DNA from: a virus
Lineage: Duplodnaviria > Caudoviricetes
Length of the DNA stretch: 64,000 nt
Strand: one strand, 5' to 3'
IMG/VR virus record: IMGVR_UViG_3300031867_000001
Span: 32,001-96,000 of that record
Within the stretch, counting starts at the first letter, position 1, and every line of letters starts with the position of its first letter. A model generated the notes under the pieces. It saw only the letters and a list, made by a program, of their open reading frames with translations. It ran no database searches and was not told the origin of the DNA. Made by a program: the position numbers and the translations under genes. Below, in pieces: positions 8,484 through 32,848 of the stretch.

Positions 8484-8635
8484 ATATTGATATACCGATG
8501 CAGTGATGCCTGGATACTTCGTGGTGAATAGGTTAACACATAAGAATGAAAATCTTACATATCGGGTTCAAGTCCCGACGGGACATCTAATAGATGTTTA
8601 TGTCTCCAAGCTCGATATTCTCGGTATATTAATAT
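8484..8635 (+). ncRNA. Conserved-stem RNA copy D enclosing a circularly permuted tRNA-Phe(GAA)
   Basis: GATGCAG..ATACTTC, D-arm GTG/CAC, TAAGA-ATGAAAA-TCTTA, TCGGG-TTCAAGT-CCCGA, acceptor closed by a loop (GACATCT-AAT-AGATGTT), then ATTCTC and closing stem. Confidence 0.7.
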
Positions 8636-8638
8636 AAT

Positions 8639-8715
8639 GCGACTGTAGTTCAATTGGTCAGAACATCTGCCTTCCAAGCAGGGGGTTGCGAATTCGAGTT
8701 TCGTCAGTCGCTCCA
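8639..8715 (+). tRNA. tRNA-Gly(TCC)
   Basis: Cloverleaf, anticodon loop CTTCCAA, encoded CCA. Confidence 0.9.
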
Positions 8716-8716
8716 C

Positions 8717-8815
8717 ATGCATGATGCAGTTATATCAGTTACTTCGATAACCTGTCACGTTATAATGAGTATTCTGCAAAGAATAATGTGTACTGGTATA
8801 AACATTCTCATGCAT
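8717..8815 (+). ncRNA. Conserved-stem tRNA-mimic RNA copy E (Asp GTC anticodon stem-loop)
   Basis: ATGCAT-GATGCAG-TTATATCAGT-TACTTC [ATAAC-CTGTCAC-GTTAT AATGAGTA..] ACTGGTATAA-ACATTCTC-ATGCAT. Confidence 0.7.
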
Positions 8816-8822
8816 ATTATTC

Positions 8823-8896
8823 GGGTCATTAGTCCAGTTGGTTAGAACGCAGCACTGTTAATGCTGATGTCATAGGTTCAAGTCCTATATGGCCCG
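8823..8896 (+). tRNA. tRNA-Asn(GTT)
   Basis: Cloverleaf, CAGCA-CTGTTAA-TGCTG; no encoded CCA. Confidence 0.9.
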
Positions 8897-8901
8897 CTTA
8901 T

Positions 8902-8978
8902 GGCTGGTTAGTAGAGTTGGTTAATACACCGGGTTTTCATCCCAGAGATCAGGAGTTCGATCCTCCTACCAGTCACCA
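8902..8978 (+). tRNA. tRNA-Glu(TTC)
   Basis: Cloverleaf, loop TTTTCAT, encoded CCA. Confidence 0.85.
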
Positions 8979-9083
8979 CGGGGTTATTATTTGAATAACC
9001 TCGCATTATGAAATGTTTGCAGGGCTTTTATGCCCTGCATTCATTTTCATTTTATTTTTATCATTTTAATGAGGTGATTAATC

Positions 9084-9278
9084 ATGACTGTTAACAAAAT
9101 CAAATTTCCAGATGGTACAGTAATCGATGTTGATAATGAAAAAACATTGAATGAGATTATGTCAATGCGTAAAGACATTAGAGACTTGAAAGATGCTGTT
9201 GGAACATTGAATTACAGAATCAATGATGTTATGCATATGATCGAAGAATTAAAACGTGATGTTTCATATTTACATTAA
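9084..9278 (+). CDS. Small coiled-coil hypothetical protein
   Basis: RBS GAGGTG; heptad-like C-terminus. Confidence 0.6.
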   Translation: MTVNKIKFPDGTVIDVDNEKTLNEIMSMRKDIRDLKDAVGTLNYRINDVMHMIEELKRDVSYLH

Positions 9279-9372
9279 ACGATACAACTAACAAATATAG
9301 TGGATGGAATATAGTCGGTCTGATTCTCAAATTTCATACAATGATTCTTCCTTTTGCAACCATCCACTTTAG

Positions 9373-9448
9373 GTCCGTTTAGCTCAGTTGGTAGAGCATG
9401 AAACCTTTAATTTCAGGGCCAAGGGTTCAACTCCCTTAACGGACACCA
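9373..9448 (+). tRNA. tRNA-Lys(TTT), with C at position 33
   Basis: Acceptor GTCCGTT/AACGGAC, TGAAA-CCTTTAA-TTTCA, encoded CCA. Confidence 0.8.
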
Positions 9449-9616
9449 TTGGTGCATTGGTACGTGCACCTCAAACACTGTGTAACGGGTCAATGTCAGT
9501 TCACGGACATTGACCCCCTCCTTCTTTACATGGTGAACGTTATTCACTTCTCATAGTTCGGTCGGGGGATTGCTCCCCCGACTCCTCCTTTTTCTATTTT
9601 TTATATTTTATTTATT

Positions 9617-9631
9617 TATATAATTAATATG
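9617..9631 (+). promoter_or_regulatory. Candidate phage promoter TATATAATTAATATG upstream of the Cas7-like gene
   Basis: Exact 15-mer recurring four times in intergenic positions. Confidence 0.6.
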
Positions 9632-9696
9632 TAATGAACACAGGTCAGGTATTCATTACAATATCATTTATAATAAATCTTTGGAGGTAATGTTTT

Positions 9697-10380
9697 ATGA
9701 AAAAGCTTAATGTCAAGGTCGTATTCGTAACAGGTCTGCTCGGTACAAAGCCGAACAATCAGGAAATCTTCTCGGAGTTTATCGCATCTAATGCACCGGA
9801 TGCAAAGACCCGTCAGCAGGAGATTGAAGACTCGTCCGTATCCGAGGTTGTTGACAAGTCGACAACTGTATTCGCCCGCACCAAGGATGGTAGACCCGTA
9901 TTTATGGACTATCACTGGAAGGGTTACTTCAAGGAGAAGTGCTCGTTCCTGAAGAAGAATGATACCGTTGATGATGGTTCCAAGCCGAAGTCCGCATCCA
10001 TCAAGGCTTTCAAGAAAGAGATTGATGGAAACATCTTCGTGTATCCCCGCAAGATCGTAATCCATACTGATGATGAGCTCACGATCAACCAGAGACCTCT
10101 CCGCACACAGACTATGCAGGGTGAACGTGTTGCGCTCAATTCGTCTGAGGAGATTCATGCACGTTCGTGGTGTGAGTTCACCGTAGAGTGCGAAATCGAG
10201 AAGCATGTTGAGTCCGTTCGTGAGTGGCTGAATTATGGTGTTAAGCACGGCACTGGTCAGTGGAGAAACTCTGGTGCAGGTAGATTCCTGTGGATGGAAC
10301 TCGATGATGAAGGAAACCAGATCGGTGGAAACTACACGGAAGAGAAACTCGAAGAGCTGATTGCTGAAGACGAGCTGTAA
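9697..10380 (+). CDS. Stand-alone Cas7/RAMP-superfamily-like protein
   Basis: N-terminal beta-strand then LLGT.P, a KGYFKE helix, RPLR thumb region and C-terminal glycine-rich loop YG...GTGQWRNSGAGRF; RBS GGAGG; no other cas gene in the window. Confidence 0.75.
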   Translation: MKKLNVKVVFVTGLLGTKPNNQEIFSEFIASNAPDAKTRQQEIEDSSVSEVVDKSTTVFARTKDGRPVFMDYHWKGYFKEKCSFLKKNDTVDDGSKPKSASIKAFKKEIDGNIFVYPRKIVIHTDDELTINQRPLRTQTMQGERVALNSSEEIHARSWCEFTVECEIEKHVESVREWLNYGVKHGTGQWRNSGAGRFLWMELDDEGNQIGGNYTEEKLEELIAEDEL

Positions 10381-10390
10381 TATGTGTGAT

Positions 10391-10420
10391 AATATGGTGG
10401 GAGTTACTCCCACCATATTT
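10391..10420 (+). terminator. Hairpin (terminator or processing stem) between Cas7-like gene and array 1
   Basis: AATATGGTGGGAG-TTA-CTCCCACCATATT. Confidence 0.65.
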
Positions 10421-10432
10421 ATATATCGCATT

Positions 10433-10996
10433 GGTATAGCTTAGTTAGATAGCGTGATATTCAGTAACGGTCCAGCCCCGCGAAGTAGGGCAGTGTAACG
10501 GTTAGGCGTGGTCCAATGTAGTGAAGTAATGTAAAGGTATAGTGTGGACCAGCGTAGAAATGTGTTGGTACGGTGTAGTCCAACAAAGTAAGGTTGTGTG
10601 CCGGTATGGTGGAACAAAGTAGGATCATGTAATGTGCTGGTACGACGACGTGGAGTAGATTCAAGTTTCGCACTGTAATGGCATGGTGAAGCAAGGTGAA
10701 GCACCGTAATGTTATGGCACGGTATGTTGAGGTCAAGTAAAGTAATGGTATGGTGGAGCCGTGTAATCTTCTGTAAAGGTATAGTCAGGTGATGTAACGT
10801 CTGGTAACGGTAATGTCAAGTGAAGTAATGCAGAAGTAATGTAATGGTTTTGTATGGTGTTGTGGACCAGAGTGAGACGATGCTTTGTATCGGTACTGTC
10901 TTGTACTTTGCGGCTTGGTATGGCATAGGTACAGTATTCCGTTGTTCGATAATATACAGCATGGGTACTGCGCAGTTCAATACGGTTCCGTGTGGC
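10433..10996 (+). repeat. Pentamer-periodic array 1 (16 units, GGY-[NNNGY]n-NNN); candidate guide-RNA array
   Basis: Unit starts 10433, 10469, 10500, 10536, 10567, 10603, 10639, 10680, 10716, 10747, 10778, 10809, 10846, 10892, 10928, 10964; 75 of 94 periods end in GT/GC by hand count. Confidence 0.85.
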
Positions 10997-11031
10997 GAAT
11001 CTTATAATAATAAAGAAGGAGAGTGTTAAAT

Positions 11032-11751
11032 ATGCATAAGGTTGATGGAGCAGAACTTCTCGGAATTCTCATTCGTAAGCTTACGGAGAATTGGGAGAAG
11101 TTGTGTGATGAATATTTGGACGAGGGTGAAGATCGTCCATCTTTCGGAGTTCTCCCAACGACCAATTACATCAAATGGTCAAAGGAAAACATCATCAGCA
11201 GTGTTAAGCTGATCAGCGTTGAAGACGAAATATCTGTTGAGGGTGTTAATGGCGCACTTAATGTGGTATGTAATCAGATTGATGGTATGATATTAAACGG
11301 ATATCCGATCCTTGATGATCTGGTTGTCGGATATGATGATGACGATGTTGCAGTATACCATAAGTCATATACCATTCTTGCGGAGAATCTTGCAACGATG
11401 ATGGTAGACGTGCGTGTTCCGGAATTGCTACTGGACTATCTGTATCTCTATCAGAAAATCTGCATTGGCAGATACCTGTATGAGATCAGAAACGTCATCA
11501 CTGATGATGTTGTGACTGGTGCTGATATACTTGGCAAACTGAATAGCTTTGCTATTAGTACACTGGGAGAAAATGCGAAAGTTAATAAGCTTGATCCATT
11601 AAGTAAGTTCGAAGTTGTGACATATGAACGAGAAGCAATCAAGTATGTTGGTATTGATCTGGATCATATCCGGTATGTATTCAAGACATACAATCAAACC
11701 ATTGAAAGATCGCGGACTTTCTATGTCCCCGATGACATTTACAATTCGTAA
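11032..11751 (+). CDS. Hypothetical protein between the two arrays
   Basis: RBS GAAGGAG; acidic 239 aa; stop codon overlaps first junction of array 2. Confidence 0.75.
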   Translation: MHKVDGAELLGILIRKLTENWEKLCDEYLDEGEDRPSFGVLPTTNYIKWSKENIISSVKLISVEDEISVEGVNGALNVVCNQIDGMILNGYPILDDLVVGYDDDDVAVYHKSYTILAENLATMMVDVRVPELLLDYLYLYQKICIGRYLYEIRNVITDDVVTGADILGKLNSFAISTLGENAKVNKLDPLSKFEVVTYEREAIKYVGIDLDHIRYVFKTYNQTIERSRTFYVPDDIYNS

Positions 11752-11752
11752 T

Positions 11753-13076
11753 GGTATTGTACAGCGCCGTACAGTGCAATACAGTCCGGTGATGGTAGGG
11801 TGGAGTAAAGTCTCACGGCGTAAAGTCCAGTCATGGCAAAGCAAAGTGTTACAATGTACAGGCGAAACGAGGTATCATATTGCAACGTAATGTGAAGGTT
11901 AGGCGAATCTGGGTACAGTATCGCGTTGTAATGGTAAAGTAAAGTGCACTTTCGTAGCGTCCTGTAATGGTTAAGTTTAGCATTGTGATGTTTAACTGAA
12001 GTTCAGCATAGTGATGTGTCGGCGAAGTAAAGCGTCGTAATATCACGTAAGGTGACGTCATGGTATGGCAAAGCTGCGTAGTATATTGTCTCGTGATGTA
12101 ATGGTAAAGCAAAGTACTGCGGAGTAAAATCTGGTGACGTAAAGGTCATGTTACGTATTGTGTCATCATGTACGGTGCTGGTATGGCAAAGTTACTCAGT
12201 GTATTGTAAAGGCAAAGCAGCGCAATCTCCTGTATTGTTAAGGCAAAGTCAGGTCATGTAATATCCCGTAATGTAAGGGTGAAGCATCGTGCCGAATCGC
12301 ATTGTCTCGTACCGTGTAGGTTATGTTAGGTGAATTAGGGCACAGCATTGTGTTGTATCGGTAAAGCTTAGCTATGTAAGTAAAGTAAGGTATCGGCAAC
12401 GTAAGGTCATACAGCGCACAATAAATTTGTGTAATGGCAGAGTACAGCTTAGCGTGATCACGCATTGTAATGTTTCGGCAAGGAATTGTTATGTTATGTT
12501 CAGGCAGAGTATAGTTGATTGTCGTTATATTTAGCTATGTTCAGGTATTGTGATGCTAAGTGGGCTATAGCACGGTGTTGGTGACGCTAAGTTTGGTATG
12601 GTGGTGTAATGGTTATGTGAAGTTCTGTACAGTCACGGTAAAGTGGAGCATCGTAGGGTGATGTGACGGTTATGTTTAGTTACACACTGCAATGTCACGT
12701 ATTATGTCATCATGTAATGGTAAGGTAGAGTGGAACAATCTTGTGCTGAGTGTAGGTAATGTGGCGCTAAGCAAAGTACTGGTAAAGTTTGGCATGATGA
12801 TATGACGGTGTAGTATAGTTCATCTCAGTAGCGTAACGGTTATGTTTAATGACGTAGAGTAACGTCTCGGCAAGGTATACCTATGTTTTCTGAAGTAATG
12901 TTTTGGTATTGTTATGCACGCTCATGCTAAGCTAAGCAGGGTTTGGTGCAGCGTCGGTATTGTATAGGCTTCTCACGTACAGTTGTGTCGAGTAAAGCAG
13001 CGGTGTTGCATAGTATGATCGAGCGCCGTAGTGGTGTTGTATGCCAGGGTTGACATGCGTTATGTCCGGTATTGTT
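11753..13076 (+). repeat. Pentamer-periodic array 2 (~37 units, mostly 26/31/36/41/51 nt); candidate guide-RNA array
   Basis: Same grammar, e.g. starts 11753, 11794, 11835, 11861, 11897, 11933, 11969 ... 12838, 12869, 12905, 12956; degenerates after ~12960. Confidence 0.85.
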
Positions 13077-13099
13077 ATACCACAACAAAAAGAATTAAA

Positions 13100-13130
13100 C
13101 CCCGCCCATATGGGCGGGGCATTCTTTTTT
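13100..13130. terminator. Bidirectional terminator closing array 2 and the endolysin gene
   Basis: CCCCGCCCA-TA-TGGGCGGGG with A-rich and T-rich flanks. Confidence 0.75.
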
Positions 13131-14713: not shown

Positions 14714-14749
14714 TATATTGAAATTTGAAATATATATAATTAATATGAA
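14714..14749 (+). promoter_or_regulatory. Candidate promoter; 36-bp block identical to 31703-31738
   Basis: TATATTGAAATTTGAAATATATATAATTAATATGAA. Confidence 0.6.
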
Positions 14750-14789: not shown

Positions 14790-15080
14790 AAGAGATCAGG
14801 ATTATCTCTGAAGACCCGCGAGTTGCAACACGGGATTCAAACTCCAGATTGACACACGGTGTTGGATGATCGTGTGTACCGATCCAGACTGATCCCCTGG
14901 GTAGGGCGTAGTCACGGCTACGCGTGATTGATGGACTGAACATCCAGTCCAAAACGGCGCTTCGGTGCTGAAGGTGGGATTGATCAACTGCCGAAAATCA
15001 TAATATAAAAGAAGGAGGTGTCCGAGATGAAAGGACATATCAAGCTTTAGCACGTCCCGAGCATGACGTTAAACTGCTCA
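14790..15080 (+). ncRNA. Candidate structured ncRNA with pseudoknots
   Basis: GC-elevated, serial hairpins, terminal H-type pseudoknot ACGTC/GACGT + GAGCA/TGCTC; downstream of promoter motif. Confidence 0.45.
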
Positions 15081-15173
15081 AACTTAATAAAACAAACGTG
15101 AATTATTTTTTTTTGCATTGTATTAATTTCAAAACGATTACGTAACTTTATTTCTTTAAGGAGATGATTTTCA

Positions 15174-24724: not shown

Positions 24725-27700
24725 GTGAAGCAATCAATGAAAGCACCAACAATTGATCAGATTGATGAAAAGATTCGTCAATTCATGAGACGAAATACTC
24801 AAAAGTTAGGAAGTCATAATACATATTATATCTATTCAGAGAATATGGATGGAGATGTCACAGGAGAAGCATACGCCGTTAATGAATTAACAAACGCTGG
24901 GTTGAAATGGTGCGTCTATACAAACTATGTCAACTCGTCAGAAGAACGTTATGGTTCTCCCGGAACAATCAACAGCTTCAGAACGACAAGTGGTGGTTCA
25001 ATAACGGATGCAGGTACATTGAGACTTGGTACGGACTGGCCATCTGGATCAGGTACCGGTACACCAAGAGATCCCGCATTCGCTGGAATGTATTCTTCTA
25101 CATTCATCAGTGTTCCCCTTGAATTAAGAAGCTGGGACTATTTTAATGGTCGCAATAATACCAATTACAACGGATATTCAGAATCAGTGGATTTGTATTG
25201 CACATCCACACACGTGTATGGTGTTGTCCGTAAGTTCTATGCAGTAACAGAGTATAACTATTCTGGGGTAACAGCTCCAATGAACATTCAAGAAATCGGA
25301 CTAATGTCGGTATCAAACCAAGGTTCAACACAATTAACATTACATGCCAGAGTTGTTGATTCCAATGGACGACCATCATACATTGTAAAGAATCCAAATG
25401 AAAAATTAACTATTTACGTGTACACATCATATGGTGTTCCAATTTCACTTATGAAGAATGGATATGATGCGGGTTGGAATGGATCAACATGGAAGTTACA
25501 AAATGCAACATTTGCATTTGTGAATCCACAAACGTTCAAAGCATTCTATAACAATTACTTACCGTGTTATTATTGTAATAATCATGGAATCGTCGGTGGT
25601 ATGGAACAGCATGGATCAACATATACAAGTTCGTATTTTTTACACATGTTAGAAGCAAACGATCGTAGCTCAATGTGGTATATGTATTATAACAATTCAT
25701 TCATGCCAGATGATTATCAAGTAAATCATGTTTCCGATTCACCGAGAATCTTATTGGAAGATAAACATCAATACATTGATGCTTATCGTGGTAACATTGG
25801 AATGACTGATGCCGTGTATAGCGATTCATCAGGTGATCGATATGGAGAATTGTGTATTACGAAATATTTTGAAACTGATACAACTGATACATTGGTTACG
25901 AACTTGGGATGTGCGCGGTATACATCTAATACGTCATACTACAATGCTGGATACTATTGGGGAGATTTGAATCTGTGTCGTTTATTTGGTGAAGAATACA
26001 GACCACAATATGCACGTGGAATATTACCAACTTCATATTGCAGCATTAAGAAAATCCAGATGTATAATATCAAAACACATGCATTTGATATTAATGAACA
26101 ATTTTCTTCACATGATGATTTTTATTATCGCGACTATTACAGTTCTAACAATAGACACTATGGACGTGCTTCGATGAAATTTCCAAATGGAACATTTGTG
26201 TCCCGTGCATTGGTATATACAAATCCAAACCCACAATATGCAATCACATCATTCAGCGGTACATATACCGCAATATATGCAACCGATTCATGGTGGGACG
26301 TTTCTACATGGGAGATTATTCCAGAATACACGAATGTACCAGCTGCATTATCCAAGAAGCGATACTATATTACCGATAGCACATACATGTACCCATATTG
26401 GGACAATGCCGAACCGAAGATCATTCCAATGACTCAAAAGAAACAATTAAACTTCACAACAACGATTTATGCATCAAGCGATACATATAAGTTGAGACCA
26501 ATACTCGTGAATGAATCGGAAAGATATATCGTGACATTCTATGAGGCAATATTCATGGATGAAAACATGGATAAAACGTCTTCTTATATCTTATCCGGGT
26601 ATGATGATGCAGCAATCCCACAAGGAACTTCATCCGAAGATAATGGACCAATGTCGATATATCGCAGAATGTTTTATGAAAATAAATTCTGCATGTTCAT
26701 TAATGAAAGACTCAATTATTCAAAAATTGGAAATGCGTCTAAATGCAGAATTTATGATTTCACAAATAGAACATCTCCAACTCATGTGGATTTAATCATC
26801 GACACAAATCCGAATAAGACGGACGAATACATCTTCATCGATTGGGATATGATGAACCAAAGTAGATGGATTGTCGTGTGTGATAATGTTGAAAATGCAA
26901 GTGGTAAGATCTGTACACAAGTCATTGATTTGTCACAGACATTAAATTCAATCACACCAATTGAAATTGAAGATGCTGCAAATCCATACTTAATCAGAAA
27001 TTCCAATTACATCATTTACAAAGATGCAACGGTAACAACCGCAAATCCAACATTCCACGTTTATAATTTGATATCAAATGCGATTGTGAAAACGATTCAA
27101 TTCCCAGCTGGATATGACGGAACATATGTTGGATGTTTTGCATATTCTACAGATGGTACATTGCCCAATACACACATTTATCTTACATTGAAAAATACAT
27201 CTTCCAATGTTTCTATAAAATACTACGTGAATGGTGATTCGATTATTCCAACACCAACAACACTTACACCAAATACAAACACCTTTACAATACCAACATC
27301 TGATAATGTGGTTAATGGAATTGGATATGTAAATGCGAATCAATCATTTGGTTGCAAAGATTGTGGAATGTATGTTGTTGGCTTGAACAATTCAACATAT
27401 TCTACAACGGATTCGACTCTTGGAACATCTTTAATTATATATGATCCGAATGATCCGTTGAACGAATATATTGTTGGCGGATATGCATGCACACACATAC
27501 CAAGCTTACGATACATCAATGATGGAAAACAATTGATATATACTAAATCGACTATATATAACAGCAATAATTCAAATATGGGTAAATGTTGTGTATTGGA
27601 TATTGGACATTTGATGGCAACTCATGAACACAATATTGTTTATCAAGAAACGACATCAAGTAAGTATTATCGAACAAGTGATTGTGTTCCGTATACAAGT

Positions 27701-28016: not shown

Positions 28017-28556
28017 ATGGCAAATATTTCCAAAGCCAAAGAAATATACAAATCAACACCCGGTAAGATTAATCCAAACAGACCACTTATTTCTGTGCAC
28101 GGTTTGTATGTTGCCGGATTATACCGTCCTCCATATTGGATTGACTCTGTACTGAATATTGTCAAGTTGTCAACAACATCCGCAGCAGATGTTGTATATT
28201 ATACTGAAACGTCTGATACTTCATATCCCGAGAAGAATGGTGTTATACAATTGACAAACATCGATATTGGTGATGCTGACATCATACAATACGGAGAAGA
28301 TTTCGATTCATCATATGAAAAAGATGGTATTGTGCAATTGACCGATATTAGTATTGGTGAACTTGATATCATATCATACGGCAATGATGAGAGTGATGTA
28401 TATACTGAAAAGAATGGTGTTATACAATTAACAGCGGTTAGTCTTGACGAGTATGATTTATATTTAATATCACAAAGATTAAATACTCAACCACCGGGTT
28501 TACCACAATTAAACATTAAACAAATCGGAGTCACAACAACTGCGGTTGTTTCATAA
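28017..28556 (+). CDS. Hypothetical virion-associated protein, paralogue A2
   Basis: MANISKAKEIYKSTPGKINPN..., three EKxGxxQLT repeats. Confidence 0.75.
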   Translation: MANISKAKEIYKSTPGKINPNRPLISVHGLYVAGLYRPPYWIDSVLNIVKLSTTSAADVVYYTETSDTSYPEKNGVIQLTNIDIGDADIIQYGEDFDSSYEKDGIVQLTDISIGELDIISYGNDESDVYTEKNGVIQLTAVSLDEYDLYLISQRLNTQPPGLPQLNIKQIGVTTTAVVS

Positions 28557-28585
28557 ATAAAAAGAAAGTTAGGTGAAATAATATA

Positions 28586-31500
28586 ATGGACAATATTGCA
28601 AGGATGGATCATATAGATCCAAACATAAATCAATTTATCAATAACATTATCAACCAAACAAAAATGGTTGAATTAACATTACATAATATTTATGAGATAA
28701 AATTAATTGATAAAGACACAAATGATGTTGACACATATTATGGTGTGAATTTAATGACAAATTGGTTTTTCAAAAACCGATACATGGGCGATGCGGATAC
28801 TGCATCAAGAAACTGTTATATTATGATTGGAGATGGTATTGATGCATCACATCAGCCAAGTGTTGATAATCGTGCCATGTATCATATCATAACAAACACA
28901 TACAAATCGAATGATACGTCACAATCTGTCCAACCAGTTGAATATAATAGTACTGATAGAATGATTCTCCAAACAATAAAAGTTTGTAAAACAAAATATG
29001 ATTATAATATAAACGGATATGATTCAGATGTCACGATTAATGAAATTGGTTATGGCAATTCACCAACCATTCTGTATTCTCATTCAAAAGTATATGATAT
29101 AAATGGTACTGAAAAAACAATCATCAAACGACCGAATCAATCATTAGAAATAACATTGTATTGGAAAATTAGCATACCTGAATCCGTATTTACTTCTTTG
29201 GAGACGAATGGTATTTACGGTGCATTCTCACCATATATATTATTACGCGACATTTCAAATAGCATTGGCAACAAACCGCGCATATATCCATATTTACGTA
29301 ATTCTGCAAGAAATTTATGTGGGTCGACAAATTATTCGGATAGTGCTTCATATCGAAAAACATGGTATAGTGATTTTGGATCGACGAGTTATGGTGGCAC
29401 CATTGTTCAAAATGATGATGGATCACGAACATGGAATTCATCATCAGAATCATATGTTCTTGAAACAGATAAATTTGATTCATTCACATCAGTATTATAC
29501 AGAAATAGTTGTCCCGGTTACATTACAAACATCAAATGTGCCGCTTTTTACAGTGGTATATGTTTATTTAGATATTTTAAGTTACCAGCGCCAGAGACTA
29601 TTGAAACGATTGTAAAGACGACGATGTTTTATAATTGTAACTTTTATAATATTATGGGAGTAAATTATCAATATCGAACGAATAATCGTGATTATAATGA
29701 AGATCGATCTGCACAACGGTATTTGCGAGGATATTTGCCAGTTGTTGATATGGACATACAATCAGTTTATCGCTACAATTTTTCAACATCCGCATTTGAT
29801 GTTGAAGAGTCATTTAACAATCCAAAACAAAATGATTACGATTTGACTGGGTTTCATTGTGCATGTTATCAATGGATGAAATGGCCTGACAATAAATCAC
29901 GTGATTCATATGTTTGTACGAATCAAAATACAACAACCCGATTAATTACTTCATTTGATGGAACCGGGGCAACGTGTTATGCGACTGATAAATGGTGGGA
30001 TGTGTCAACATGGGAATTGGTTTCTAATACAGAAGCAGTTGAACAATCATTACAACGTAAAAAGTATTATATATTCAATAAAGCCATCAATCTTGCTAAT
30101 AGCACGTCAACTTTGTCATTGTCAACATCAAATGCATGGATTCCAAATCCACAAACCCAGTATACTAATGGTGTTCATAAAATAAATGAACAATTCGAAA
30201 GACATGTTGATGAAACAAATGCACTTCTGTATGCTAATAACAACAGCATCCGATATATCACACATGCAAATGAAGATTACAACTTCTATGTTCAAAATAA
30301 TATTGTTTTCCGAAGACCGGAAACACAATTCTCAATATGTCCAGCACAATATATTTTTAATAATGTCAATAGCATATTTAGCAATGTAATTCCAGACGTA
30401 CGTTGGGTATTCCTTGGTAATCAATTAATTACAACAACCGGTAAATTGATATATCTGGTGGAATCATATGTTACAAACACACAACCGGGCTATACGAGAG
30501 AAGCATATGGTATAAGATTTTGTATTACAAATTTAGCATTACAAGATGATGCGATCAATAATTCAACAAAAGCCGTTTCTATAAATGATAAATTTACACA
30601 TACACTTGCGAACATCAACAACTATGTGTGTGTAACACATGGTAAATATTTGCTTTGTGACGGATATAATGAACTTATAATCTACAATACAGACACAGAT
30701 GATTATTGGTTATATCCATATAAAATAAACAAAGTTCGCGAGATTCATGGTACAAGTAAAATTATACTGAATCCTTCTTCTGATAATAACCGATGGACAA
30801 TTTATGATTGTGATACAAAACAGATCACACATCAATTTGATGTTCCGTCAGATTATGCACCAACAAAATTTCTTGCATTTGAAGATTGGATTTATATTTA
30901 TGCGACATATGGCTCCACACACGCAATGTTATTGTATACAATATCAACACAAGAACTGAAGCAGATAGAATATCCATCAATACTTGATTCATATGGTTTT
31001 TATGGTTTTACGCAATACTATAATGATTCTACGTATTCCGCAAACGGTGTTTCGAGCACAAACACGGATTACTTCATATCCGACGCGAGCAAATACAACT
31101 CATGTGGTGTGCAATATAAAGATGGAATTTTGTGTATTGTATCTCCTGACTATTACAATTCATTTATCATTATTTCGAGATATAATCCAGAACACATTAT
31201 CAATCAAAGCACATTCTTATCTGAATCAGACTATTCTGGTGTCAGTAGTGCATTAATTCAATTATGTAAAATATATGAAAATTATTATGTCGGATTCACT
31301 GTTGCTTCATACAGCTCTGGTTATTATAGATCAACAAAGTTCTATGACATTGGTAGAATCATCCGTAATGATAATGCGGTTACTTCATCAAATGAATCGG
31401 AGTATCAAGTTGATTATTTATGTTTTAACCGTGATGGTATGAATCCATGGTATTTCAATGTGATGACTGCATATAAGAATAAGATTTATGCATATGGCAA

Positions 31501-31816: not shown

Positions 31817-32848
31817 ATGAACACAAGAATGATTATTGAGAATAACCTGAAGAAAGTTTTGACGCCTCTCCAGCAGATCGCTTTCGACAACATTGATCTG
31901 CCAAATTCAAAACTGGCTAAGAAGCTTAACCGAACACCACAAAATACGAACTCCATCTCTAAAGCTTTAAAGGCGAAGCTTGAGAAACTCGAGTATACGG
32001 AAGAGTTCATCGATGATGCATGTATGCATCCGGATAAGTATCTGATCTCTTCAGAGGAATTAAGTGAAGAGATTGTGAAAAAGCTTGTCAGTGAGTACGG
32101 CAGAATCACAGTAACCACTGAAGAAATCAACAACGATCGCACCAGACTTTGCGAGGATCCTGTATGGAATAGCTTCCTCGAAACCTCGTCCACGAAAATG
32201 TGGAAAACCTACCCATTCAATTTAATCGCATTGATATTCGGTTTCACAAAGGAAGAGATGACAAACAGCGGATACATTAACGTTGACAGCACAGTTCAGA
32301 AGGAACTCGCTATCATGTGGGTTAATGGAGTCATCAAAACATGTCAAATTGCTGAAAAGCGATTCGATATCGTAGAAATGCGTTATCAGCAGCACTTGTC
32401 GTTGGTTGATATTGGTAATAAATACCATATTACCACGAATAGAGTCAGACAACTTCTGGCTAAATTCCTCCGGCAGATGAGACATCCCACAAGATCCAGA
32501 AAGCTTCGCGTTATAACCGAGGCATTGTTTAATACCAATGGTGAGGTTAACTTTTCAGATATAATCACGAAGTATGAACGTAAAATGACGGAGAAGGAAA
32601 TTGCACGCGATCTTGCTGCAAAGAACGGCAATGTGTCGCTTGATGACATCACGATCGAAGAACTGAATTTCTCGGTTCGGACATTTAATTGTTTGAAGCG
32701 TGCTGGTATCAATAATGTGGAAGAACTTGTTGATGCCATAACGAAGAAAACTGAAACAGGGTTTTTGTGCGATATTAGGAATCTCGGCAAGAAGTCCTAT
32801 GGCGATATTTGTGACAAACTCACATCGATGGGGTTCTTAAAGGAATAA
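31817..32848 (+). CDS. Sigma-70 region 4 + RNA polymerase alpha-CTD fusion protein
   Basis: SLVDIG..YHITTNRVRQLLAKFLRQMRHPTRSRKLR (sigmaA region 4-like) and IEELNFSVRTFNCLKRAGINNVEEL...IRNLGKKS (alpha-CTD). Confidence 0.85.
   Translation: MNTRMIIENNLKKVLTPLQQIAFDNIDLPNSKLAKKLNRTPQNTNSISKALKAKLEKLEYTEEFIDDACMHPDKYLISSEELSEEIVKKLVSEYGRITVTTEEINNDRTRLCEDPVWNSFLETSSTKMWKTYPFNLIALIFGFTKEEMTNSGYINVDSTVQKELAIMWVNGVIKTCQIAEKRFDIVEMRYQQHLSLVDIGNKYHITTNRVRQLLAKFLRQMRHPTRSRKLRVITEALFNTNGEVNFSDIITKYERKMTEKEIARDLAAKNGNVSLDDITIEELNFSVRTFNCLKRAGINNVEELVDAITKKTETGFLCDIRNLGKKSYGDICDKLTSMGFLKE

Follow-up and report, generated by a model that had tools for sequence, protein, structure and literature searches.

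The DNA stretch studied here (hereafter the window; 64,000 nt, positions 32,001 to 96,000 of the IMG/VR record IMGVR_UViG_3300031867_000001) comes from a virus record of 250,503 bp, which is complete, carries direct terminal repeats and corresponds to a rumen-type jumbo phage. Between positions 9616 and 13119 of the window we found a locus composed of a stand-alone gene for a RAMP/Cas7-like protein (vipr), a first array of 5-nt periodic sequence, an open reading frame (ORF2) and a second array. We estimate at about 85% the probability that this locus is a Viral Interference Programmable Repeat (VIPR) system of the 'staggered array' kind. The locus matches the published descriptions of VIPR feature by feature, and is thus of a known kind that does not alter the picture of these systems. 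The modelled fold of the protein, the grammar of the arrays, the conserved pairing of gene and array, the phage context and the variability of the arrays among strains were established in this work. A stand-alone RAMP with pentamer-coded RNA had been proposed in an earlier note made from the sequence alone, and this reading was supported by the RAMP fold, by gene-array conservation and by the phage context.

VIPR is a CRISPR-related mode of RNA-guided DNA silencing described in 2026 (bioRxiv 10.64898/2026.04.26.720920 and 10.64898/2026.04.26.720927; 10.64898/2026.10.21.760802). According to these preprints, the system consists of a phage-encoded ancestral RAMP, Vipr, and of vrRNAs built from GGY/NN pentamers. 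One Vipr protomer is bound per repeat, with the GGY bases flipped into protein pockets, and the NN bases pair with double-stranded DNA (dsDNA), every third base being skipped and either strand being bound; competing satellites and prophages are the natural targets. The 'VIPR'-type systems with which the earlier note compared the locus are real and published. Its suggestion that the NGY arrays are a distinct variant was right only in part, since 'staggered' arrays with 1-nt overlaps and repeats of the types YNNNG, NNNGG and NNNNG are already described (bioRxiv 10.64898/2026.04.26.720920), and the later preprint (10.64898/2026.10.21.760802) reports 21 clusters and non-canonical units near Vipr-like folds, among them WGT/NN and TGH/NN, in which one position of the trinucleotide is degenerate.

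Two arrays with a strict pentameric grammar

Identity at lag 5 reached 0.418 in array 1 and 0.417 in array 2, in comparison with 0.27 ± 0.02 and 0.27 ± 0.01 in 500 dinucleotide-preserving shuffles (z-scores of 7.8 and 11.9, respectively) and with 0.22-0.25 in the flanking genes. All the highest-scoring 500-nt windows overlapped these arrays, which are the sole lag-5 tracts in the window and in the 250-kb genome; weaker lag-5 regions at genome positions 14851-15100 and 25901-26100 were examined and are not arrays. The periodic run of array 2 begins already at about position 11752, straight after the stop codon of ORF2. No identical direct repeats were found in the arrays, in agreement with the earlier note, and a scan of the arrays against Rfam returned no family, ribozymes included.

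Segmentation of both arrays by a phase-tracking Viterbi parse gave 52 phase-coherent segments, of which 47 fit the grammar GY-(NNNGY)k-NNNG cleanly; these counts correct the figure of about 50 units proposed from the letters alone. The fitting segments were always 5k+1 long, with lengths of 26, 31, 36, 41, 46 or 51 nt plus a single one of 16 nt. The 5-nt beat with a mostly fixed GY was borne out: position 4 of the pentamer is G in 82% of cases overall, rising to 96-98% beside unit ends, and C or T fills position 5 in 99%; a G stands there only at unit ends. Positions 1-3 are variable and A-rich. The claim that GGY is fixed only at unit junctions had to be corrected, because G occupies position 3 in 19% of the internal pentamers, and the junctions are defined instead by an extra base that creates a 6-nt step between successive GY. 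All regular junctions read NNNG/GY (the slash marks the unit boundary), and the junction G takes the pyrimidine slot of the old register while serving as the first fixed base of the next unit, shifting the register by +1. Successive units consequently overlap by 1 nt at G/GY, which is the staggered layout. The last and first pentamers are semi-conserved, following roughly the pattern GT-AAnG/GY-A.

On the minus strand, the arrays are crossed by three open frames of 75-91 aa (10441-10736, 11849-12112 and 12238-12465). These are no genes but by-products of a periodic sequence poor in C.

The adjacent gene encodes a protein with a predicted RAMP/Cas7 fold

The vipr product carries the RAMP-type glycine-rich loop (G-loop) noticed in the earlier note, GTGQWRNSGAGRF, which is invariant or almost so across 30 relatives. 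An AlphaFold2 model built on 30 relatives (pLDDT 77, pTM 0.76) contains an RRM core, an alpha-helical insert (residues ~24-54), a thumb hairpin (~129-153) with the invariant residues Q132, R133, L135, R136 and G142, and the G-loop (G185-F197). Comparison of this model with the PDB through Foldseek resulted in 156 hits at E≤1e-3, with a lowest E value of 9.5e-7; the top 50 were all Cas7-family proteins, and the best matches were Csm3, type VII Cas7, Cas7-11 and type IV Csf2. The top match in BFVD, at 46% identity, was a phage protein annotated as 'Cas system-associated RAMP superfamily protein'. No match was found for either Vipr or the ORF2 product in Pfam, PHROGs, PADLOC, NCBIfam or PDB sequence searches; RAMPs are stated in the VIPR papers to share little sequence similarity. 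As judged from the model, the protein is a RAMP/Cas7-fold protein, as the earlier note had expected.

Alignment of the Vipr family profile with the Vipr of Escherichia phage SUSP1 by hhalign gave a weak match (E 0.04), in which only the G-loop region aligned convincingly (GVGDWRPRFGRF in SUSP1, GTGQWRNSGAGRF in the window). The G-loop of the SUSP1 family, GVGD[W/Y]RPRFGRF, aligns with GxG[Q]WR..GRF in the family studied here. Since sequence similarity is not significant, membership in VIPR rests on the fold, the G-loop motif and the context. According to the cryo-EM paper, the first G of GGY is read in SUSP1 Vipr by H17 and D177, the second by R138 and W178, and the pyrimidine by a pocket that includes R179. 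The W and the R are retained in the alignment, and H17 and D177 are replaced by T17, nearly invariant in the family, and by Q188, which is invariant. On this one weak alignment, the two replacements would fit a free first G, that is, NGY instead of GGY.

Gene and array are conserved together across a large protein family

The Vipr family comprises at least 747 proteins. It is represented by at least 498 loci in IMG/VR and in 143 species genomes, for the most part metagenome-assembled genomes of gut/rumen Clostridia. Among the best 80 of these IMG/VR loci, a lag-5 tract abuts the vipr homologue in 75, confirming the expectation that homologues would lie next to 5-nt periodic arrays. The family arrays are located on the strand of the gene in 185 of 190 cases, and the 5k+1 grammar is common to 188 arrays from 160 loci: of their 2,246 inner segments, 76% measure 1 mod 5 (20% expected by chance), with modal lengths of 26-36 nt, and 84% of the family junctions read GG[C/A/T]. 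Position 5 is C or A in most arrays (136/190; loci L001-L167) and C or T in the clade of this phage. G is avoided at this position throughout the family; since no other base is excluded there, 'NG[not G]' describes the family better than 'GGY'. Among 762 pairs of related segments, mismatches at pentamer positions 1 to 5 had frequencies of 0.16, 0.15, 0.21, 0.03 and 0.12, which leaves G fixed, position 5 under constraint and position 3 with the greatest freedom.

The arrays also differ among close strains. Seven cattle-rumen contigs (L187-L193) encode a Vipr 99% identical to that of the window, and in two of them that were compared with the window the nucleotide differences in vipr fall mostly at third codon positions (32/36 and 41/43). 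In these two contigs the leader hairpin and the first unit are nearly unchanged, and the arrays show insertions and deletions of whole units together with dense substitutions. The strain variants retain the G and the Y and change the N. These data indicate a rapid change of the arrays on a conserved Vipr protein. We do not claim formal diversifying selection, because ORF2 is also only about 80% identical in the compared strains.

Array 2 occupies the place of a backbone gene

ORF2 has only 20 homologues (64-78% identity), and its AlphaFold2 model was poor (pLDDT 57) and gave no fold match. The related rumen-type phages L084-L087 carry ORF2 without a vipr gene or array, followed by a gene of 247-260 aa and then by the same endolysin gene. 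For this reason ORF2 was rejected as a candidate vap gene, and is regarded as a backbone gene of this jumbo-phage clade. In a close relative whose Vipr is 98.6% identical, vipr is followed by an array 1 with only about six units, then by ORF2 and a 260-aa gene. Array 2, counted from the start of its periodic run (11752-13085), occupies the place of the 259-260-aa gene of the relatives (L082:6592-7374, L084:6748-7527), which is truly coding, has no lag-5 signal and is absent from the genome of this phage. From these gene orders, vipr and its arrays are an inserted, expanding module, array 2 having grown at the expense of a backbone gene.

Elsewhere in the family, the neighbours seen often were only genes for cI/Cro-type helix-turn-helix (HTH) proteins, SSB and DUF1351, which belong to the early/lysogeny-control region of temperate-type phages.

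Search for targets of the putative guides

Target searches were exact and full-length, and so stricter than the match of at least 80% given as criterion in the VIPR papers, and the databases searched may not hold the competitors of a rumen jumbo phage. The search of NN and NNN patterns against shuffled controls, as proposed in the earlier note, gave nothing above chance: within the phage's own genome, ten codes (NNN, or NN taken from positions 1-2 or 2-3, combined with skips of 0-3 bases) were tried for self-targeting, and none exceeded the controls. The pattern of unit 12906-12956 with a 1-nt skip had 0 matches in IMG/VR and 0 in JGI metagenomes, units 12957-13002 and 10847-10892 had 0 in IMG/VR, and unit 11795-11835 had 0 in 401 sampled Clostridia genomes. 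Unit 12669-12719 gave 5 metagenome matches, 4 of them distinct, which were judged to be chance because they share no reading frame and no other guide converges on them. Unit 12279-12319, with 16 specified bases, gave 14 matches in IMG/VR, about the number expected by chance; the translations of all 14 resemble the peptide [DE][IM]A[IM][IM]LTV, which is what period-3 patterns tend to produce. A contiguous NNN reading, giving a 24-mer, had 0 matches, and no known motif was recognised when the guides were read as degenerate peptides.

A family-wide test of codes compared 1,233 unique guides with 1.6 Mb of family loci. An enrichment of NN with one base skipped was discarded as circular, since loci fetched with the same patterns were included; once these loci were removed no code was enriched, and a small excess for NNN with two bases skipped is residual array-to-array matching.

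Transcription signals and genomic context

The features of the locus and its surroundings are collected in Table 1. The hairpin, the single open reading frame, the two arrays and the terminator that the earlier note had listed were present at or close to where it had placed them, and so was its promoter motif near 9617.

Table 1. Position and description of the features of the vipr locus and its surroundings (window coordinates)
Feature	Position	Strand	Description
Phage tRNA gene cluster	8515-9448		Upstream of the VIPR locus; Phe-GAA, Gly-TCC, Asn-GTT, Glu-TTC, Lys-TTT
Two terminator-like hairpins	9487-9516, 9560-9583		Between tRNA-Lys and promoter motif
Putative promoter region	9616..9662	+	Recurrent phage motif TTATATAATTAATATG (9616-9631), then sigma-70-like TGAACA-16-TACAAT (9635-9662)
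vipr gene, 227 aa	9697-10380	+	Predicted stand-alone RAMP/Cas7-like protein (AlphaFold2 fold, G-loop, context)
Hairpin, then U/A-rich tract	Core 10392-10418	+	Between vipr and array 1
Putative vrRNA array 1	10434-10964	+	16 phase-coherent segments, 14 fitting GY-(NNNGY)k-NNNG (31-46 nt)
ORF2, 238 aa, mostly helical	11035-11751	+	Between the arrays; 20 homologues
Putative vrRNA array 2	~11795-13085	+	~36 segments of 26-51 nt, grammar as in array 1
GC-rich bidirectional intrinsic terminator (predicted)	13100-13119	Both	Would close the array transcript and the convergent endolysin gene
Endolysin gene, 319 aa	13129-14088	-	Homologues in relatives with Glyco_hydro_25, CW_7 and LysM domains

Further copies of TTATATAATTAATATG with at most one mismatch are found in the window at positions 14732, 31721 and 44958 (minus strand), four in all with that at 9616, and several of them stand immediately 3' of a GC-rich terminator hairpin. 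The motif probably represents a phage-specific promoter class, its copy at 9616 heading the vipr operon. It can also be written in a 15-16-nt form, (A/T)TATATAATTAATATG, with a fainter copy at position 646. A 12-bp inverted repeat at 9630-9660 overlaps the sigma-70-like hexamers of vipr and could be an operator.

The hairpin between vipr and array 1 has a folding energy of -25.1 kcal/mol (z -5.3; 0 of 200 shuffles were equally stable), and is kept in the strain variants L187-L193 with one change in the loop. It is a candidate for a terminator/attenuator or for the 5' boundary of the array transcript. The last gene of the tRNA cluster is that of tRNA-Lys (9373-9448). The domains of the endolysin homologues point to a Gram-positive, Clostridia-type host.

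The locus lies in a viral genome and its arrays hold no CRISPR repeats, a non-CRISPR setting. Membership in CRISPR-Cas was rejected, given the lack of direct repeats with spacers and of Cas1. Concerning the lack of cas genes claimed in the earlier note, Cas1 was indeed not found across the 250-kb genome; cas2, cas5, cas6, cas8 and cas10 were not searched for individually.

Proposed mode of action and alternative explanations

For transcription, protein-RNA binding, pairing code and targets we infer the following scheme. Transcription of vipr would start at the phage promoter motif (~9616-9662) and run on across both arrays and ORF2 as far as the terminator at 13100-13119, the arrays being reached by read-through of the hairpin at 10392-10418 or from an internal start. 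By analogy with SUSP1, Vipr protomers would bind the array RNA, one per pentamer, each gripping the G and the pyrimidine at positions 4 and 5 and exposing the next two bases. The exposed dinucleotides of 5-10 consecutive pentamers would then pair with dsDNA with one base skipped (NNxNNx...), and genes in a rival phage, satellite or prophage would thereby be silenced. A G in the otherwise G-free slot would end one filament and nucleate the next, with or without cleavage of the RNA. Peculiar to this clade are the free first G, the short units that lack a tail, and the use of that G alone as punctuation.

A bolder version of this last step, which we put forward as a rather doubtful proposal, is punctuation by register alone: the G in the non-G slot would stop one filament and the same G would start the next one off-frame, so that an uncut transcript of ~1.3 kb would carry dozens of mini-filaments of 5-10 protomers, each specifying 10-20 target bases, and the changes H17→T and D177→Q would have freed the third base. 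If true, this would be a cleavage-free division of a guide array, with a targeting unit that is shorter, and possibly cooperative, in comparison with that of characterised VIPR.

Several observations weigh against the assignment to VIPR. No targets were found under any code in the searches described above. Under the NN rule the units specify only 10-20 bases, with 5-10 repeats versus the 9-16 of SUSP1, and their end pentamers are semi-conserved. The locus does not show the tail-capped vrRNAs of roughly 100 nt found in SUSP1, and has no conserved 3' tail or pseudoknot. The profile comparison with the 21-member SUSP1 family (X1U2U4) gave an E value of 0.022 with a probability of 2%. In the papers, small-RNA sequencing (sRNA-seq) confirms ribozyme-interspersed and single-guide layouts and not staggered arrays. 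Finally, a vap could not be demonstrated, as only a generic cI/Cro-type HTH gene is conserved among the family neighbours. In the first VIPR paper, seven types are distinguished, loci 'typically' have a vap, and six vaps are given; a vap is thus not strictly defining of VIPR. By elimination type I would fit the locus, being the only type for which no vap is given there.

The alternatives to VIPR guides pairing with dsDNA under a 1-nt-skip code differ in how much of this scheme they keep. It is improbable, but the most serious of them, that the Vipr-array ribonucleoprotein targets the RNA of a competitor or of the host, or uses another pairing code in which, for instance, the third base is read. 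The closest folds are indeed those of the RNA-targeting Csm3, Cas7-11 and type VII Cas7, while the characterised VIPR binds dsDNA on either strand. In favour of another code, in this clade the equivalent of the first G is unconstrained and the two residues that would contact it have been replaced, the searches did not bear out the 1-nt-skip code for this Vipr family, and the paralogous units 10501, 10537 and 10568 retain all three N while their GY drifts. On the other hand, position 3 is the fastest-evolving one in related unit pairs (0.21 vs 0.15-0.16), the NNN triplets are not codon-like and show no depletion of stop codons (12 stop triplets vs 14.7 expected), and the NNN-based searches found nothing. 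As the searches found targets under no code, the alternative of three coding bases per unit, raised in the earlier note, is without support.

Much less probable still is that the arrays are not guides at all, being a scaffold or sponge RNA, or a DNA element with 5-bp periodic sites, that assembles or titrates the RAMP protein and in which the variable bases are unconstrained. The failure to find targets, the very short units and the A-rich bias of the variable positions would agree with this. Against it, 188 arrays keep the unit grammar and the strand; in addition, the variable positions change faster than the synonymous sites of vipr and whole units come and go between strains, which would be expected of guides in an arms race. 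Furthermore, the low C content of the plus strand (13-14%) suits an unstructured single-stranded RNA, and, according to the preprints, guide function has been proven experimentally for a VIPR system with the same RAMP fold and G-loop motif. It is hardly credible that the tracts are functionless, whether as degenerate simple-sequence DNA or as miscalled coding sequence: the minus-strand frames through the arrays are what could be cited for it, whereas a 5-nt period is incompatible with coding, the 5k+1 and G/GY grammar is far from chance and recurs beside the vipr gene in at least 150 loci, and strain variants retain G and Y while changing N. Altogether, a VIPR system with staggered arrays is the reading that we favour.

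On this reading, the locus is a large and clean example, with ~52 units, of a Vipr family abundant in gut and rumen phages of Clostridia. It offers testable links between residues and grammar, namely T17/Q188 with a free first G, and a G at position 5 only at unit ends. With its strain-level turnover of guides, it may serve as a specimen for the punctuation of staggered arrays and for the specificity of short guides. Staggered, tail-less arrays with a relaxed trinucleotide are mentioned in the papers, though not with confirmation by sRNA-seq.

Comparison with known systems

The Cas7 proteins of Class 1 CRISPR systems (Csm3, Csf2, type VII Cas7) share with Vipr the RRM core, the thumb and the glycine-rich loop, as well as a mode of RNA binding in which every subunit covers a fixed footprint and bases are flipped out periodically. 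They differ in their footprint, of 6 nt with 5 paired, in comparison with 5 nt and 2 exposed bases here, and in that the protein studied here is phage-encoded.

Closer to the locus is the type II VIPR of phage SUSP1 (KT454805; vipr 28474-29061, vap1 28031-28471, and four vrRNAs), type II being the only VIPR type characterised in depth. Both have a small phage RAMP with a G-loop of the form GxG[D/Q]WR..GRF, arrays before and after a second gene, and a pentamer register NN-[G/N]GY on the strand of the gene. The SUSP1 system has NNGGY repeats, 9-16 per vrRNA of roughly 100 nt, an invariant 3' tail/pseudoknot and a dedicated vap1, whereas the present locus has NNNGY, 5-10 repeats per unit, units of 26-51 nt and no invariant tail.

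The best agreement is with the staggered VIPR arrays. In both cases a stand-alone phage RAMP lies next to a 5-nt periodic array, adjoining units share 1 nt, and no more than two of the three 'GGY' positions are fixed. Neither has a per-guide tail, CRISPR repeats or cas genes, Cas1 being the one searched for here. The locus described here differs from its relatives in size and in carrier: its two arrays comprise ~52 units, the family having a median of 11.5 inner segments per array (maximum 44), and it resides in a jumbo phage in place of the usual temperate-type phage of 40-60 kb.

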